A stretch of DNA of 64,000 bases from an uncultured Chloroflexia bacterium. Lineage in GTDB: Bacteria; Chloroflexota; Anaerolineae; B4-G1; SLSP01. Shown here one piece after another: positions 9,584 through 21,557 of this stretch. The notes under the pieces were generated by a model. That model saw nothing but the letters and a program-made list of their open reading frames with translations. It did not search any database and was not told where the DNA came from. The stretch lies in contig CAVVUS010000012.1 in assembly GCA_963751345.1 (NCBI GenBank), forward strand, positions 1 through 64,000, written 5' to 3'. Position 1 is the first letter of the stretch, and each line of letters starts with the position of its first letter. The position numbers were made by a program, and so were the translations under genes.

Positions 9584-10514
9584 CAGTCCACATCGAAGAG
9601 CGGCGTGCTCAGGTACCGTTCACCGGTATCGGGCAGGATCACCAGCGATCAGCTTGCCGGTGTTTTCCGACCGTCGAGCGACCTGGACCGCCGCGTACAC
9701 CGCTGCGCCCGAGCTGATCCCGGCCAGGATCCCCTCTTCCCTCGTCAGCCGACGTCCCATCGCTATCGCCTCGTCTCCGGTAACGTGGAAGACTTCGTCG
9801 ATGATATCCGTGTTCAGTACCGCCGGCACAAACCCGGCGCCGATGCCCTGGATCTTGTGACCGCCCGGCGCCCCACCGGCCAGGACCGGGGACTCGGTCG
9901 GCTCAATAGCGATAGCCTGGAGCCCTGGCTTCTTCGCCTTCAGAGTCTCGGCGACACCGGTGATGGTGCCACCGGTGCCCACACCTGCGACCAGGATATC
10001 CACCTGGCCGTCCGTATCGCGCCAGATTTCCAGCGCCGTGGTCTCGCGATGGATCTGTGGGTTGGCCGGATTCTCAAACTGCTGCAGAACGAAGGCATCG
10101 GGCCTCTCAGTCGGCCAACTCAGCAGCCTTGTCGATCGCGCCCTTCATCCCTCCCGCCCCCGGCGTCAACACCAGTTCGGCGCCCAGCGCCTTCAGCAGC
10201 TTGCGCCGCTCTATGCTCATCGTGTCCGGCATTGTCAGGACCAACTTGTACCCACGCGCAGCGCAGACGAACGCCAGGGCGATGCCGGTATTCCCGCTGG
10301 TCGGTTCGATGATGAGCGTGCCCCGACCGATGCGCCCCTCGCGTTCTGCTGCGTCGATCATGCTCACGCCGATCCGGTCCTTGACACTGCTCAATGGATT
10401 GAAGAACTCCAGTTTGGCTACGACTTCGGCGACCGCGCCACCGGTCACCCGGTTCAATCGAACCAGAGGTGTATTTCCCACTAACTTCGTCATATCGGTT
10501 GCGATTCTCATCAT
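9583..10514 (-). CDS. cysK: Cysteine synthase A (several frame breaks)
   Basis: [12 protein letters not shown]-lysine motif [42 protein letters not shown]. Confidence 0.93.
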
Positions 10515-10549
10515 CCGTCCTCCCATTGGGCAAACTTTCGCTACACACA

Positions 10550-11224
10550 TCAGTTACCGGGGCGCGCTGGTTGCGGCCCAACTGTTCCGGCAGGAGATTC
10601 GCCAAGCCGGACCTGAAAGACGGCCAGGCCGGCCCGTAGATTGGCCCTCCACGCGCCGATCTGCCGCGCGGGGGGGGCGAGGAAGATCTCCCGCACACGC
10701 TCCAGTCCGAGCTTCTGACAGAGCAGTCTGAAGTCCCGTACGGAGCACAGGTGAACGTTAGGCGTATCGTACCACTCGTAGGGCAAAAGTGGGGTCTTGG
10801 GCATACGTCCGTTGACGAGTAACTGCAGTCGCACACGCCAGTACGCGAAGTTGGGAAAGCTGATGATCGCCGCCTTCCCCACGCGCAGCATCTCCTGGAT
10901 CACGCGCACGGGATCGGACGTCTGTTGAAGCGTCTGGCTCAGGATCACGACGTCAAAAGCGTGTGCATCGTAATTACCCATACCCTCCAGCATGTCACCG
11001 TGGTACACCGCTACGCCGAGGCGGATACAGGCCAACACGGCCTCGTCGTCGATCTCGATCCCGCGCCCCACACAGTTCTTGTCCTCTGCCAGCTTGGCCA
11101 GCAGTTGGCCATTGCCACATCCCAAGTCCAACACGCGCGCCTCGTCGGGAACCAGGGATGCGATCAAATCGTGATCCGGGCGGCGCTGGTAGGGCTGCGC
11201 CCCTATTTTCGACGATCCGCTCAC
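10550..11224 (-). CDS. metW: Methionine biosynthesis protein MetW
   Basis: [48 protein letters not shown]; GTG start overlaps the metX stop. Confidence 0.92.
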
Positions 11225-13766: not shown

Positions 13767-14856
13767 TCAGTGGGATGCTGCCGGACCCCCACCGAGATCC
13801 ATCACAAAAGTGTAAATGTAGGAGACCAGTCCATCGATCTGTTCGTCCGTGAAGATCTGGCCATATGAGGGCATGCCGGTGCCCATCCCCCCGCGTAACA
13901 TCTTGCCCTCAAGCCTCGCCGGGCTGGTCCCCAACATACGACGCGGATCCGTAAAATCGGGCGGCTGCATCGCTGTCTGCCCCCCCTCCAGCGTTTCAGC
14001 ATCATACGGCGGCAGGCCCTGCACCATCACTCCATCGCCCTGCCCTGTCTCGCCGTGGGCTGCAGCGGCTTCTTGACGGTAGATGCGCCCTGCTTCATCC
14101 AGTGAAGCCGGTGTCGTCTGCCGCGCCCAGATCCACGCCACCGCGTCCCAAACATCCATATCGCTCAGGGTGTGCAGCGCCGGCTCGCCGCGAAGCTGCG
14201 TCCAGAGCTCCGCCGGACTGTGGCTCCAGTAAGTGGCATCCTCTAGCGCGTAGCCGGGCAATAAGGATGCCCACTGCCCACCGCGTTGCGCCACCGGCGT
14301 TGTCTCGGGCACCACCGCGGCCTCCACCGGCGCATCCGGATCGATTCCCAGTTGGACGTATCGAGGCGTCCCTGTCGTCTGGGAGACTCCCTCGCCCGTC
14401 GGAGTGAACGAGGAGCTCCCCGTGACCTCGATCGTGCCCCGCATCCGCCAGTGATTGGGTCCGCACCAGCGGGTGCAGTAGAAAGTATACGTGCCGGGCT
14501 CATCGAAGACCAGGGACGTCGTGGTCCACTTCCCCGGCAAGACATCGACTGCCGGGCTGTCGTGACGCCCTACGGCAAACCCGTGCGTCACATCGTCTGA
14601 GGTCAACCGGAGCTGCAGCGGCACCCCTACCTGCGCCTCCAGGACATCGGGCGTCCATCCTCCCTCATCGGCCATCCGCCCGTGGAGTTCCACGGCGGCC
14701 CCCGCACGCCCGAGCCAACGACCGCCAATCGGGATGGCGACGGCAGCCGAGTACCAGAACAGTCACCACAACGCGTGCCAGACGTTCCAGCTTTGGAGTC
14801 GAGGCCGGCAGGCCAGGATGCCTCCGATCAACGCCGGCGTTCAAATCAGCAGCCAT
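13767..14856 (-). CDS. Membrane-anchored CuA cupredoxin fused to cytochrome-c-fold domain(s) lacking CXXCH (frame break near 14745)
   Basis: VTHGF...YCTRWCGPNHWRM CuA motif; C-terminal GRIYRQEAAAAHGETGQGDG..PPDFTD..GGMGTGMPSYG..QIDGLVSYI class I cyt c pattern. Confidence 0.8.
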
Positions 14857-16212
14857 AGCATGCCAGCCGTGACGAGCGAGCCATAGGCCAGTACCGGCAA
14901 GGATTGGCGGGGAGAGACGGCACGCCGCACCTCCACCGCCGCCCAGAACAAGCCAACTACGAGAATAGCTACCTGAAGCAGGGGTACCACGGACATCAAG
15001 ATACGGCTGCCACGCCCACCCGGCGGTGCCCAGGAGATTCCAGCCTAGACCCAGGGGGTCGGAGAGGACGGGCCATACGTAGGCCAGACTGTCAAAGGCG
15101 AAGCTCATCGTGAAGGCGATCCAGGCCGCCAGCCCCAGCGGGCTCATGGCGTGAGCCAGGTCGATAGCGCTCCGCCTCGGCGAGCCGGGCCGCCCTGCCA
15201 TACGCCATCCCGTCCGTGCGGCCAACCAGAATAGCCCCGGGCCGATTCCCAGCGTCAGGGCAAGGAACGCGAGGGCGTAGAGCCCCCAGATCGACGTGCC
15301 GATCGCGTAAGCCGCCTCGGTCAGGTGGCCCCAGGGTCCGAGCATCACGGCGGCATAGACAGGGGCACACGCTAATATGAAGAGTCCGAACCAGGCGCGA
15401 TCCAGGCGCCGCGCAGGTCTCGTTGCCCACGACGTGATCCCGGCGGGATCCGCAGCGCCCGCGGCTACCTCGGACCCCATCGGGCGCACCCAGAGCGCCA
15501 TATTGTCATAGGGGCAAGTCTGTACGCAGGCCAAGCACAACCCACAGTCAAAGCTCTCCTTGAGAACCGCCGGGAAAAGACCCCACGAGCAGGCACTGTG
15601 ACAGGGCTTATCGCTGCACCCGGTGCAGACACCGGGGTTGCGGACCCGAACGGCCAGCGGGGCAAGCTGCTGGTACCATCCAACGTATCCACCAATGGGG
15701 CATAGATAGCGGCAGAAGGCACGCCGCTCGAAGACGAGAGCGAGGCCGGTGGCCGCCAGGAGCAGGCCGAGCAAGATCCACCCCGTGGCGCCGGGGCGAG
15801 TGAGCAGCACCACGCTGAAGAGCCCCATCGCCGCGAACCCGCCCAGTTGCAGCCATTGACCTCGTAACCGGCGGGGCCATCTCGCTTTGAGGCCTACGCC
15901 CTTGCCGGGGCGCGTGATGCCGCCCTGCTGCAGCCACTCCCCCACGACTGGGATGGGGCATATGCTGCACCACGTCCGTCCTCCAATGGGGATGAGGACC
16001 AGCTTCAGCACCGTCCACCAGGCAATCCATACGAAGATGATGGCAAAGTTGCGCCCGCCGACCGGCGTCCCCAGCAGCCCTGCGAGAATCGTGAAGACAA
16101 GGCCGGCCAACGTGATCGCTTGGCCCAGGAAACGTGGCCACCGGCGCCTCAACAATGGGCCCAGCCGGCGGACCCGGGTGAGATCGAAGCCGCGCTCCGG
16201 AAGCGACGTCAT
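14841..16212 (-). CDS. Polytopic 4Fe-4S binding protein (NapH/NosR/FixG-like polyferredoxin; frame break near 15000)
   Basis: GRTWCSICP and RAFCRYLCP motifs; CTGC..CHSAC; CGLCLACVQTCP; many TM helices. Confidence 0.88.
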
Positions 16213-16679
16213 GCTTGCATTACCCTACCCGAGCGCTCAGAAGACACGCCAAAGACGGACGCCCATACTACCGCCGCCAATGCCAGCCCTGTTGCCCGCA
16301 CCCACAGCCGGTTTGGACCCACCCGCAGCCTTCCGATCATGAAGGGGTGAATGTCGCCACAGGGCACGGAGCAACGAAATCGGAAAGATCCGGGACGGTC
16401 GGCCACGAAGGAAAGCGTCGCCACCTGCCCGGGATTCGCGGTCACAGAGATGTCGTACCCGTCGAGATAGAGCCCATGGACGACGTCGGTCGATCTCACC
16501 TCCAGCGTTACCCTGTCGCCCGGATTCACGGTGACGGTGCCCGGCGTGAAGCTGAACCGGGATGCCGAAATCGACACGACCCGGTCTTCGGGGTCAATCT
16601 GCTTGCCTGGTATGGGCACGCAGATGATCACGAAAACGGCCGCCAACAACACGAGCCATTGCCGGGGAACCTTAGGCAT
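16209..16679 (-). CDS. Stand-alone CuA-type cupredoxin (COX2-like domain) with two TM anchors
   Basis: DVVHGL...FRCSVPCGDIHPFMIG matches H..C-x3-C-x3-H-x2-M. Confidence 0.88.
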   Translation of the reverse strand: MPKVPRQWLVLLAAVFVIICVPIPGKQIDPEDRVVSISASRFSFTPGTVTVNPGDRVTLEVRSTDVVHGLYLDGYDISVTANPGQVATLSFVADRPGSFRFRCSVPCGDIHPFMIGRLRVGPNRLWVRATGLALAAVVWASVFGVSSERSGRVMQA

Positions 16680-16687
16680 AGACCACG

Positions 16688-17134
16688 TCAGGGTGTCGGT
16701 GGGCCGAAACGACTGTACTGCTGATCTACGTAAGCCCGGATCTCTGTGACCGACTTACCCTGCCCGGACATACGCATCGTATCGTGCGTGATGTCCACGC
16801 AGAGAGTGCAGCCCAGCGCATGGCTGTCGAAATGAACGGTGCCGTCTGCATCCGTGCCCTGCACATAGCAGCTATAGTTGGACGTGTGGCCCATAGCCCC
16901 ACAACCACAGTAGCAGGGGACCTGCTGCATCACGTCGGGATTGGCAACCGCGAACTGGTAAGCCTCGCGCACCACCACAGAAGCCTGCTGCACTTGCTGC
17001 GGCATGTCGGCAATCGGTGCGAGTTGAAGGGCGGCATTCGCGCCCGCCGCGCCACTCGCGCCACAGCTTGCCACGACTGCAGCCACCACAAGCATGCCCA
17101 CGACCATCCCCACCATCTTCAGGTGTTGCGTCAA
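16688..17134 (-). CDS. PCYCGC motif-containing lipoprotein
   Basis: Lipobox VASC; VPCYCGCGAMGHTSNYSCY; HALGCTLCVD; GAGGAGG SD before the TTG start. Confidence 0.92.
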   Translation of the reverse strand: MTQHLKMVGMVVGMLVVAAVVASCGASGAAGANAALQLAPIADMPQQVQQASVVVREAYQFAVANPDVMQQVPCYCGCGAMGHTSNYSCYVQGTDADGTVHFDSHALGCTLCVDITHDTMRMSGQGKSVTEIRAYVDQQYSRFGPPTP

Positions 17135-17383
17135 CGTTGGCCTCCTCGAGAGCTATCAAAGGTTGCGTGTCCCGCTTCTGCCCAGGGCAGCATCAGAGGA
17201 CGAGGTCACGCTTCGAACAAGTCTAGCAGAAGCCGTCGTGGCATTTGAGGGCCAAATGACGAGAGCGGGATCCCGCCAAATGGCGGTGCCTGCAGCCGGC
17301 CAAAAGCGCCTGTTGATGGGATTGTGTGTTGGTTATCCTGATCACAATAGTCCGATCTATCGCGTCCGTGGTCGCGCTTACTC

Positions 17384-17406
17384 ATATCTAAGATATTAAC
17401 TATAAT
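17384..17406 (+). promoter_or_regulatory. -10 box (TATAAT) of copB with an upstream palindrome
   Basis: ATATCT-A-AGATAT at 17384-17396; TATAAT at 17401-17406. Confidence 0.55.
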
Positions 17407-17451
17407 AACGATGGATGCCTTGCTACTGAGCAGCAGAAGGAGGGAACCACG

Positions 17452-19560
17452 ATGAGTAACGATTCGCAAAGTACGGCCCATCACGCCGCGCACGATCGAG
17501 ACAAGCATGCCATGCACCAGGCGGTCATGACGCACACAGACCACGACGGTCACGAGAACCATAGGGACGGTAGCAATCACGGGGGCCACGTCGACCACAC
17601 CGGCCACGAGCAGATGTTCCGGCGCCGGTTCTGGATCAACCTGATCCTGACCCTCCCTGTGCTGGTCTTCAGCCCGTTTATCCAGCAGATATTGGGTTTT
17701 AGCATCCCGCCATTCCCCGGCAGCCGCTGGATCGGTCCGGTCTTCTCCTTCATCGTCTTCTTCTACGGCGGGTTGCCCTTCATCAAGATGGCCATCCCCG
17801 AGGTGCAGCACCGGCTGCCTGGGATGATGACGTTGATCTCGCTGGCTATCGTTGTGTCATTCGCTTACAGCGTCTTCGCCGTCTTCACTGATCCCGCAAG
17901 CGGCTTCTTCTGGGAGATGGCTACGCTGATCGACATCATGCTGCTGGGTCACTGGATTGAGATGCGCAGTGTCAGGCAAGCCTCGGGCGCGCTTCAGGAG
18001 TTGGCCAACCTGATGCCGGATACCGCTGAGCGCATCCTGGACAACGGCGAGACCGAGGAAGTGCCGGTGAGCTGCTCTGAAGGAAGGGGACCTCGTCCTC
18101 GTGCGTCCGGGCGCAAGCGTTCCGGCTGATGGGGAGGTCACTGAAGGGAAATCCGGCGTCAACCAGGCCATGATTACGGGCGAGTCCAAGCCGGTAACCA
18201 AAGAGCCCGGCGATAAGGTGATCGGCGGGGTCATCAACGGCGAGGGCAGCCTGCGCCTGCGGGTGACCGCGACAGGCGAAGACACCGCGTTGGCAGGCAT
18301 TATGCGGCTCGTCGACGAGGCGCAGAAAAGCAAGTCCGATACCCAGATCCTGGCGGACCGGGCGGCCGGGTGGCTCTTCTATGTGGCGCTGGGCGTGGCT
18401 GCACTCACGGCTATCGGATGGATCATCGTCCAGGGACTGCAACTTAGCGTGCTGGATCGCGTGGTCACGGTACTGGTCATCGCCTGTCCGCACGCGTTGG
18501 GTCTGGCGGTGCCGCTCGTCGTCGCCATCAGCACCTCACTGGGTGCGCGCAACGGCATCCTGGTACGCGATCGTTTGGCGCTCGAAGAAGCCCGCGAACT
18601 TGACACCGTGATCTTTGACAAGACCGGCACGTTGACGGAAGGCAAGTTCGGTGTGGTCGACATGGCCGTGTCCGGCGACTGGGATGAAGCGCGGGCGCTG
18701 GGACTCGCCGCAGCGGTCGAAGGGGACTCGGAGCACCTGCTGGCACAGGCCATCCGGGGGAAGGCCAGTGAACGCGGGTTGAGCCTGCCGGAGGTCCGCG
18801 ACTTCGAGGCCATCAAGGGTCGCGGTATTCGGGCCCAGGCTGAGGGCAGGACGATCTACGTCGGTGGCCCACAGCTGCTGGAGATGCTGAAGACAGAGCC
18901 GCCAGAGGTGTTGCGGACCTTCGCGACCGAGGCCGGTGTCAAGGCCCAGTCGTCGTCTATCTTGTGGATGAAACGGACGTCGTGGCCGCGTTTGCGCTGG
19001 CCGATGTCATTCGTCCGGAAAGCCGCGAGGCTGTCAGACGGCTGAGGGAATACGGTGTTGAGGTCGCGATGCTGACGGGTGACAGCGAGGAAGTGGCCCG
19101 GGCCGTAGCGAAGGAGCTTGGCATCGAGACCTATTTCGCCGAAGTGTTGCCCGAGAACAAGGACCAGAAAGTTGCACAGTTACAGGCACAGGGGAAACGG
19201 GTGGCGATGGTCGGTGACGGCATCAACGACGCCCCCGCGCTGACGCGCGCGGACGTCGGGATCGCCATCGGCAGCGGGACGGATGTCGCCATTGAATCGG
19301 CGGGCATCATCCTCGTCGAGAGCAATCCGATGGATATCGTGCGGATCTTCGAGCTGAGCAAGGCGACTTACAGAAAGATGATCCAGAATCTCATCTGGGC
19401 GACCGGGTACAACGTGATTGCGCTGCCGCTGGCAGCGGGGGTATTGGCGCCGGTTGGCATCTTGCTCTCGCCGGCAGTTGGCGCACTCCTGATGGCGCTC
19501 AGCACGGTGATTGTTGCGATCAACGCACAGTTGCTCCGGCGCGTGGATCTTTCACGGTAG
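17452..19560 (+). CDS. copB: Copper-translocating P1B-3 type ATPase (frame breaks near 18075 and 18950)
   Basis: His-rich N-terminus, [12 protein letters not shown] (CPH), [24 protein letters not shown]. Confidence 0.93.
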
Positions 19561-19958: not shown

Positions 19959-20278
19959 ATCAAGCCTCCATCGCTATTGTCAGATAGAATCACGGTATGT
20001 ATTCACCGAACATACCTCCGATTATCACAAGCAACTCTCTGATTCTTCATGTCTAGGCCCTAGTATATCGCCGGGAAGCCGAACGGACAGGTGACAAATG
20101 ACGTGTCGGGGCCCCCGCCGTTTGGCGGGGGTTCAACCTCATACCCATCGCCATTACGGATCGAACCTCGGAGAAAGAGGCACCTTGCGCCGCAGATGGC
20201 GGTCCACCTCGCATCCGCTACAGTACAATGGAAGCGTCACAGGTACTTACGCTATCGACGCAAAGGAGATTCGGAGCT

Positions 20279-21557
20279 ATGTACACACCCAAACCGACCG
20301 CCGGTGATACGTCGTGGTTCGTCCACGACCGTTTCGGGATGTTCATCCACTGGGGGCTCTACGCCATCGCGGCCCGCCACGAGTGGGTGCAGATCGCGCG
20401 AGCAGATCTCCCCCGAGGAATACCGGAAGTACTTCGAGCGCTTCAACCCCGGACTACGATCCCGCCGAGTGGGCCGCGGCCGCGGCTGCGGCGGGGATGA
20501 AGTACGTCGTGCTCACCTCCAAGCACCACGAGGGCTTCTGCCTGTGGGACAGCGCCTACACCGACTACAAGGTGACCAACACGCCCTACGGCAAGGACCT
20601 GCTGCATCCCTACGTGGACGCCTTCCGCGCTGCGGGGCTGCGGGTGGGCTTCTACTACTCGCTCATCGACTGGCACCATCCCGAGTTCCCCATCGACGGC
20701 ATCCACCCGCTGCGCAACCACCCGGACGCGCGGAGATCAACAAGAGTCGCGACGTCACGAAGTACGCCGAGTACCTGCACAACCAGGTCGCGCGAGCTGC
20801 TGACCGACTTCGGCGAGATCTCCTCCTGTGGTGCGACTTCTCTTACCCCGGCGCGACTACCGGGGCTGCCGGGCAAGGGCCACGAGGACTGGCAGAGCGA
20901 GAAGCTGCTCGAGATGATCCGCGAACTCCAGCCGGGCATCATCCTCAACAACCGGCTGGACCTGCCGTCGTGGCCGACATCCACACGCCGGAGCAGTGTC
21001 AGCCGCCCGAGTGGGTCAAGGTCGACGGCGAGCCGGTGGTCTGGGAGGCGTGCCAGACCTTCAGCGGCTGTTGGGGATATTACCGGGACGAGAAGACCTG
21101 GAAATCGCCGGGCCAGTTGATTGCGCATGCTGGTCGACACTGTGGCGCGAGGCGGCAACCTGCTGATGAACGTCGGCCCGACGCCGCGCGGCACCTTCGA
21201 CGAACGCGCGATCGACGCCCTGGAGGTCTACGCGGACTGGATGGCACTCCATAGCGAGGCGATCTACGGCTGCACGCAAAGCGAGTTCGAGGAGCCCCAG
21301 GACTGCCGCCTGACGCAGAAGGGCAACAAGCTCTACGTCCATATCTTCGCCTGGCCCTTCAAGCACCTCCACCTCAAGGGGCTGGGGACAAGGTCGCCTT
21401 CGCCCGTTTCCTTCACGACGGCAGTGAGATCCCCCTGCGCCAGCGGGACTGGACCTCGAGTCGCCTGCCGGCCGGGGCAGACACCCTGGTGCTCGAGCTG
21501 CCGGTCATCGCGCCCGACGTCATAGTCCCGGTGATCGAACTGGAGCTGAAGGACTAG
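20279..21557 (+). CDS. Alpha-L-fucosidase, GH29 (many frame breaks)
   Basis: [66 protein letters not shown] across successive frames. Confidence 0.9.

Follow-up and report, generated by a model that had tools for sequence, protein, structure and literature searches.

The CuA and cytochrome-c-fold gene

The analyzed DNA, referred to as the window, comprises positions 1–64,000 of contig CAVVUS010000012.1 (assembly GCA_963751345.1) from an uncultured Chloroflexota bacterium. An open reading frame on its minus strand (13767–14693; 308 aa as called) encodes a CuA cupredoxin domain and a class I cytochrome c domain. In the latter, the motif A-A-A-A-H (14055–14069, minus strand; residues 209–213) replaces C-X-X-C-H and is encoded by GCC GCT GCA GCC CAC (14069–14055). 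The first-pass annotation had reported AXXAH in place of CXXCH, GCC codons at both former Cys positions, and retention of the proximal His and the distal Met-Pro. All of these were confirmed from the minus strand, on which the quoted translation is present, and the retained residues are His213 and Met274-Pro275 in a G-M-G-T-G-M-P loop. His213 is the presumed proximal ligand and Met274 the presumed distal one. The Met loop, M270-G-T-G-M274-P275 together with S276 and Q279, lies at 13857–13886 (minus strand), and M274 is invariant in 121 sequences. The only Cys residues of the 308-aa ORF are C73 and C77, both of which are CuA ligands.

The domain of class I cytochrome c fold occupies 13806–14108 (minus strand; residues 196–296), as delimited by PF00034, by a profile search against PDB sequences and by VIA-align. 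Pfam Cytochrom_C (PF00034) matched residues 213–294 with an E-value of 5e-6 and 28.1 bits against a cut-off of 21.3, and the family profile matched solved cytochromes c among PDB sequences (6h5l_B, E 1.3e-15). The likeness to class I cytochromes c, earlier drawn by eye, is upheld by both searches and by the predicted fold. The domain lacks the CXXCH through which two thioether bonds are made and has the axial His and the distal Met. Therefore, it stands by definition outside the c-type (covalent) cytochromes, though it is clearly their homologue.

The CuA cupredoxin domain covers 14409–14693 (minus strand; residues 1–95) and was assigned from Pfam COX2, its ligands and Foldseek. Pfam COX2/CuA (PF00116) matched residues 24–89 (E 3e-6), and the ligands are His37 (14583–14585) and the C-x3-C-x3-H-x2-M motif of residues 73–84 (14442–14477). 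The complete CuA ligand set (H37, C73, C77, H81 and M84) is invariant in the 121-sequence alignment. In Foldseek, the domain matched the CuA domain of Thermus ba3 (2cua_A) with an rmsd of 1.4 Å over 92 columns. The proposed fusion of the cytochrome-like domain to a CuA domain was thus correct, an intact COX2/CuA ligand set lying in the same ORF.

A relic half of a second cytochrome c domain was located by hhalign at 14121–14264 (minus strand; residues 144–191). In a local alignment, this segment matched the C-terminal two-thirds of the cytochrome c domain's own profile (probability 90%, E 1.6e-6), which substantiates the second, more eroded cytochrome-c-like segment of the first-pass annotation. 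CXXCH, the His and the Met loop are absent from its consensus in a 78-row alignment. The top Foldseek match, 6h5l_B, was aligned over 197 columns, and two separate cytochrome c stretches of its sequence fit the profile.

Reading frame and quality of the assembly

Homologues of the protein are 320–350 aa long with an N-terminal hydrophobic membrane anchor; the called ORF is thus N-terminally truncated. The anchor is out of frame upstream of this ORF because of a 1-nt insertion near 14746 (minus strand), which is private to the window and absent both from L003, a locus of another assembly that is about 93–95% identical, and from two X2 contigs. Once the extra base is removed, the full gene spans 13767–14769 (minus strand) with a GTG start at 14769–14767; this start, with the membrane anchor upstream of the called ORF, is the probable gene model. 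A second private 1-nt insertion, near 14999 (minus strand) in the upstream Fer4_5 gene, is also absent from L003, in which both genes are intact and the anchor stretch is in frame. Contigs of independent public runs lacked the insertions as well: two X2 contigs at 14746/14747, and one X2 and one X5 contig at 14997–15000.

The insertion at about 14746 is most likely an assembly error and that at about 14999 is read as one, because they are absent from L003 and the independent contigs and because other genes of the window are likewise split. If the insertion at 14746 were real, this allele would be non-functional and the family would be unaffected. Recoding or a pseudogene, considered for two in-frame TGA codons upstream of the ORF, was rejected after alignment to L003, by which the TGA codons were found to result from single-base insertions.

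Several other genes of the window are split across frames, namely a PALP enzyme (9620–10550), a CopA-type ATPase (17452–19560) and an alpha-L-fucosidase (20091–21525). L003 carries indels of its own relative to the window, and both assemblies look indel-prone. The N-terminus of relatives reads M-E-R-L-A-R, and the window (14781–14790) and L003 have CTG in place of the Met codon. Therefore, the start is probably a GTG 2–3 codons before the anchor, as in the database protein P0001.

The four-gene module and its neighborhood

Three further genes lie upstream on the minus strand, each found in 55/55 of the related loci with at least 3.5 kb of upstream flank. The first gene of the module (16688–17134) encodes a protein of the PCYCGC/CYCXC family (PF13798, NF041379). 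It is followed by a small second CuA-type cupredoxin (16209–16679; Pfam COX2, Cupredoxin_1) and a polytopic Fer4_5 (NapH/MauN-like) iron-sulfur membrane protein (14841–16212), which is broken by the insertion near 14999. The order PCYCGC, cupredoxin, Fer4_5 and, last, the CuA/cytochrome-c-fold gene, all on the same strand, is conserved in all 55 loci. Against the NCBIfam model for the 'CYCXC family (seleno)protein', the product of 16688–17134 scored 75.3 bits, below the cut-off of 90. Relatives of this protein elsewhere may use selenocysteine at the motif.

A CopA-like P1B ATPase of the copper type is encoded divergently on the plus strand (17452–19560) and is split into several ORFs. A CopA-like match was found in 16/80 related loci, including all three Cys-less loci that were long enough to judge. 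These three are kin, so that the association with CopA is not independent among them. A HisKA_3/LuxR two-component pair occurred in 34–38 of the 80 loci.

The CuA-containing protein scored 47.6 bits against the NCBIfam CoxB model (TIGR02866), far from its cut-off of 147.7, and the COX1 match of the genome lies on another contig (C11). Therefore, the protein is not a usual oxidase subunit II.

In the divergent promoter region (17100–17480), a search for operator-like palindromes returned one weak 11-nt palindrome only. Literature searches found nothing relevant on the PCYCGC family and only general copper-homeostasis papers on CcoG/NapH. No RNA dataset was among the public runs listed as sharing sequence with the locus, and these runs contained no more than 0.20 of the words sampled.

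Loss of the two cysteines among relatives

The close-relative set was defined as the window plus the best 120 of 3834 matches, taken as 90%-identity clusters. CXXCH was present in 97/121 of these sequences and the Cys-less form in 24/121, the window included. The Cys-less motifs were AAAAH (13), GAAAH (8), GAASH (1), AAVAH (1) and GSAAH (1). At the level of species-representative genomes, 76 of 80 loci had CXXCH and four were Cys-less (L003, L004, L005 and L027), and L003 reads the same motif as the window. The gene is carried by 7/71 genomes of the window's own GTDB family. Within the window's genus, five genomes, counting the window, are Cys-less and one (G065) has CAACH; a carrier in another genus of the same family has GAASH.

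To these relatives can be added a 151-nt contig from an unrelated salt-marsh run (X1), which showed 0 differences over 13918–14068. It is identical over 14 of the 15 motif bases (14055–14068), and Cys codons are thereby excluded at both positions. A sequencing slip had been judged unlikely from the codons, and the X1 contig, L003 and 23 other clusters bear this out. The variant is not a one-off either, with 24/121 clusters and 4/80 species genomes Cys-less. TGY and GCN are linked by one-step intermediates that also occur, Gly (GGN) at the first of the two positions and Ser (TCT) at the second. The third base varies among the Ala and Gly codons, a sign that the Cys loss has long persisted. Clustering at 50% identity gave no new lineages: 71/150 representatives covered the motif, of which 66 had CXXCH, five were frameshifted-looking fragments and none was Cys-less.

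A FastTree analysis of 122 sequences, i.e., the 121 family members and locus L027 with a Cys-less total of 25, placed the Cys-less forms in a group of 15 rows (support 98), a group of 9 rows (support 99) and P0014 alone. Three changes are needed on this tree, and its well-supported branches force at least two. The same counts came from a quick IQ-TREE run with the trait columns kept, for which the 122 rows were thinned to 74 (the 25 Cys-less sequences and every second CXXCH row). These trees suggest recurrent Cys loss, in two or three groups. Independent origins are not taken as proven, as one origin for all Cys-less forms was not rejected in the AU test on the 74-row set (delta lnL 22.4, p 0.28).

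Predicted fold

The AF2 model of the whole ORF had a pLDDT of 91. The C-terminal 193 residues, folded separately because the Foldseek result of the whole model was dominated by the CuA domain, had a pLDDT of 90. In VIA-align, residues ~190–300 superposed on class I cytochromes c with Z scores of 8–9, for example 6h5l_B (Z 9.2) and 7o38_A (Z 8.6, rmsd 1.8 Å, 81/81 residues). All 50 of the VIA-align matches listed were cytochromes c. Among the 42 Foldseek matches listed, 41 were c-type cytochromes or complexes containing them, the exception being 6hwh_i at rank 8.

The Cys-less domain, as modelled, is thus of class I cytochrome c fold, and the structure model suggested in the first-pass annotation speaks against a different fold (Z 8–9). 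AF2 gives holo-like shapes with or without a cofactor, so that the fold match says nothing on the occupancy of the pocket.

Cytochrome c maturation in the genome

The genome (5.4 Mb, 93% complete) was searched for the cytochrome c maturation machinery. CcmF-like and CcmC-like matches and CcmE were found together on contig C41; ResB was not found in this 93% complete genome. The other PF13442 matches with E ≤ 4e-5 all had CXXCH (9/9), and six-frame stretches of the genome contained up to 17 CXXCH. In five other genomes, four of them Cys-less and one with CXXCH, two PF01578 matches each were found.

Therefore, lost cytochrome c maturation was rejected as the cause of the Cys loss, given the presence of CcmC, CcmE and CcmF and of CXXCH in 9/9 other domains. 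With Ccm and many CXXCH cytochromes kept, the loss is specific to the protein of ORF 13767–14693. For the suggested comparison of motif forms with maturation genes, 97 CXXCH and 24 Cys-less forms were tallied, and the four other Cys-less genomes searched keep both PF01578 matches. The proposal of a maturation-independent domain does not hold for the cell, which keeps CcmF, CcmC and CcmE; with Ccm intact, any independence from it would belong to this one protein.

Other cytochromes of the organism were noted in the same searches. The ccm genes on contig C41 (~34–51 kb) adjoin six-frame stretches with 15, 10, 3 and 2 CXXCH, and the stretch with 17 CXXCH lies on contig C10 (130174–131766); the organism is rich in multihaem cytochromes. 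On contig C11 (156817–163033), two long ORFs that contain several cytochrome c domains in tandem (3 and 5 CXXCH) come directly after the sole COX1 match. The arrangement resembles an operon of the oxidase or NO-reductase type whose cytochromes have several domains.

Comparison with known systems

The closest precedent for the motif is an engineered protein, the C10A/C13A (AXXAH) variant of Hydrogenobacter thermophilus cytochrome c552 (Tomlinson and Ferguson 2000). In PMC4451467, this variant is described as stable and folded with non-covalently bound haem b, and its potential as 75 mV lower. Non-covalent haem in a class I fold is thus physically possible. The two proteins share the class I fold, the replacement of both thioether Cys by Ala, and the His/Met ligands. 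The c552 variant, however, was made in the laboratory from a small, soluble protein of a thermophile, whereas the window protein is natural, occurs in several lineages, is fused to CuA and is membrane-anchored. Furthermore, the window protein has extra pocket changes at 208, 276 and 279, and its haem binding is predicted. In the openly searchable literature, the engineered protein was the sole AXXAH cytochrome c found, and no natural Cys-less or haem-free domains were found.

The subunit II of caa3 oxidase from Thermus thermophilus (2yev_B), which was the top Foldseek match of the full model (E 2.6e-9), has the same domain order, CuA first and a class I cytochrome c domain at the C-terminus. 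The caa3 subunit has CXXCH, whereas the window gene is Cys-less, follows a NapH-like Fer4_5 gene in 55/55 loci and has COX1 elsewhere (C11). The CXXCH orthologues of Chloroflexota, such as those of Thermanaerothrix daxensis (L015) and G065, share the architecture and the module at 50–58% identity. They differ in keeping C-A-A-C-H, N208, Y276 and P279, except that the G065 locus (L089) has Leu276 and Ser279.

With the NapH/NosH-type electron input to the CuA of nitrous oxide reductase, the module has a NapH/MauN-family ferredoxin and CuA cupredoxins in common, and its CuA domains score against the C-terminal domain of NosZ. The module has no NosZ catalytic domain, however, and the likeness to nitrous oxide reductase systems is one of domain families only.

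Retained ligands and possible contents of the pocket

The axial residues were compared between the two forms. No sequence of the 121-member alignment departs from H213 or M274, and L027 has both as well, so that both occur in 25/25 Cys-less sequences. The domain has 31 columns with at least 95% conservation in the CXXCH forms, and the 25 Cys-less sequences keep 26 of these; departures are seen at the two Cys, at F247 (80%) and P250 (84%), and at W277, which is replaced by Y. At matched divergence of the CuA domain, identity of the cytochrome c domain was 0.66–0.77 in the Cys-less clades and 0.64–0.70 in the CXXCH forms. Between the window and L003, dN/dS was 0.13 for the gene and 0.16 for the cytochrome c domain, the latter from small numbers (9 synonymous and 5 non-synonymous differences). 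Therefore, the axial His and Met and the core of the Cys-less domain are held by purifying selection.

Other positions changed together with the motif. In all three Cys-less groups, N208 is replaced by E/H or F/L/M and Y276, present in 90/97 CXXCH forms, by S/A. P279, present in 88/97 CXXCH forms, is replaced by E/Q/A/D/S, with A/S in clade B and P0014 and mostly E/Q in clade A. These accessory changes at 208, 276 and 279 suggest a pocket that has been remodelled and is not decaying.

Our preferred reading of these sequence comparisons, to which we give about equal measures of belief and doubt, is that the domain binds haem b non-covalently through His and Met and exchanges electrons with CuA. 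The protein would be a single-anchor, outward-facing electron-transfer protein composed of an intact binuclear CuA domain, a relic half cytochrome c and a full class I domain. In the window's lineage, both thioether Cys have been replaced by Ala or Gly; the haem would still be held, His/Met-ligated and non-covalent, so that nature would have produced a b-type cytochrome on a class I c fold. This b-type domain may pass electrons to or from the adjacent CuA center. The four-gene module often stands next to genes for a CopA ATPase and a two-component regulator, and its probable role is the transfer of electrons through the membrane to copper centers on the extracytoplasmic side. We infer the binding of haem, its non-covalent attachment, and the direction and purpose of the electron flow alike; a different ligand, or a structural function, might account for the conserved His and Met. 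It counts against non-covalent haem b that, for this organism, no Ccm-free route is established by which haem b could be inserted outside the membrane.

An origin for such a domain may be sought in copper. Cytochrome c assembly is reported as a target of copper toxicity (PMC4600104), and, speculatively, a module linked to copper could benefit from a haem domain that lacks thiols. The b-type class I domain would have arisen in this module, possibly more than once, with the loss of thiols freeing the haem domain from the thiol-dependent Ccm pathway, which copper reportedly poisons, at the cost of a lower potential and of non-covalent binding; we hold this scenario only tentatively and consider it rather improbable.

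The foremost alternative, less probable than non-covalent haem b but to be taken seriously, is that the domain is haem-free and acts as a folded spacer or as a docking surface for the CuA domain or for partner proteins. A half-domain without haem, the relic cytochrome c, is already tolerated in the same family, and the attachment of haem by Ccm requires CXXCH, so that Ccm would be unable to attach haem here. Some thermostable apocytochromes c also fold without haem, as Yamanaka et al. reportedly described in 2009. The conservation described above argues against an empty pocket, however: with His213 and Met274 in every Cys-less sequence and 26 of 31 conserved columns kept, constraint is not relaxed in comparison with the CXXCH orthologues, whereas the true relic domain has lost the motif, the His and the Met loop.

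We consider it unlikely that the pocket once used for haem now binds Cu(I) or some other metal through His213, Met270 and Met274 and that the domain is thereby a copper-handling module. A His with two Met fits the Cu(I) ligand sets known from periplasmic copper proteins, and the PCYCGC protein and two CuA cupredoxins are nearby, with a CopA ATPase in 16/80 loci. However, M270, M274 and H213 show the same invariance where CXXCH is kept and so do not form a new site, and no His, Met or Cys was gained with the loss of Cys, the changing residues becoming small or acidic. The specific support for a metal site is limited to the copper-related neighborhood.

A different tetrapyrrole or a modified haem, bulkier or differently substituted, might fit the pocket with its shrunken side chains, as C209 and C212 became A/G/S, Y276 became S/A and P279 changed in all three Cys-less groups. 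This idea is purely inferential, and the engineered haem-b variant uses small residues too; we find it quite improbable. That the window assembly carries a sequencing error or a decaying gene, as the 1-nt insertions in the anchor and the upstream gene and the several other split genes might hint, is highly improbable, given that the motif is common to 23 other clusters and loci of several assemblies and identical in the X1 contig, that dN/dS is 0.13 over the gene, and that both insertions are absent from L003 and from independent X2/X5 contigs.

Natural controls for covalent haem attachment

Why haem is covalently attached by costly machinery is a long-standing question that has been probed mainly via engineered AXXAH mutants of one thermophile protein. 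The Cys-less class I domains described here are a natural counterpart: they are under selection, have CXXCH orthologues in the same genus, and occur in cells still running Ccm. The CXXCH orthologues are natural controls. If haem b is bound, the class I fold would be shown to work as a b-type cytochrome in nature, and natural protein pairs would allow stability, redox potential and the route of assembly to be compared. If the domain is indeed a thiol-free b-type one, the CXXCH/AXXAH pair in the same genus would be a natural experiment on covalent haem attachment. If it is haem-free, it would be a case of a haem domain repurposed with its former ligands kept. Either outcome helps to characterize a CuA/iron-sulfur module that is common among Anaerolineae-type Chloroflexota and has yet to be described.

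A further observation concerns L089 (genome G065) and L010. The same-genus orthologue has C-A-A-C-H, yet Leu at 276 and Ser at 279. A pocket of the L089 type may represent an intermediate state and a natural comparator.
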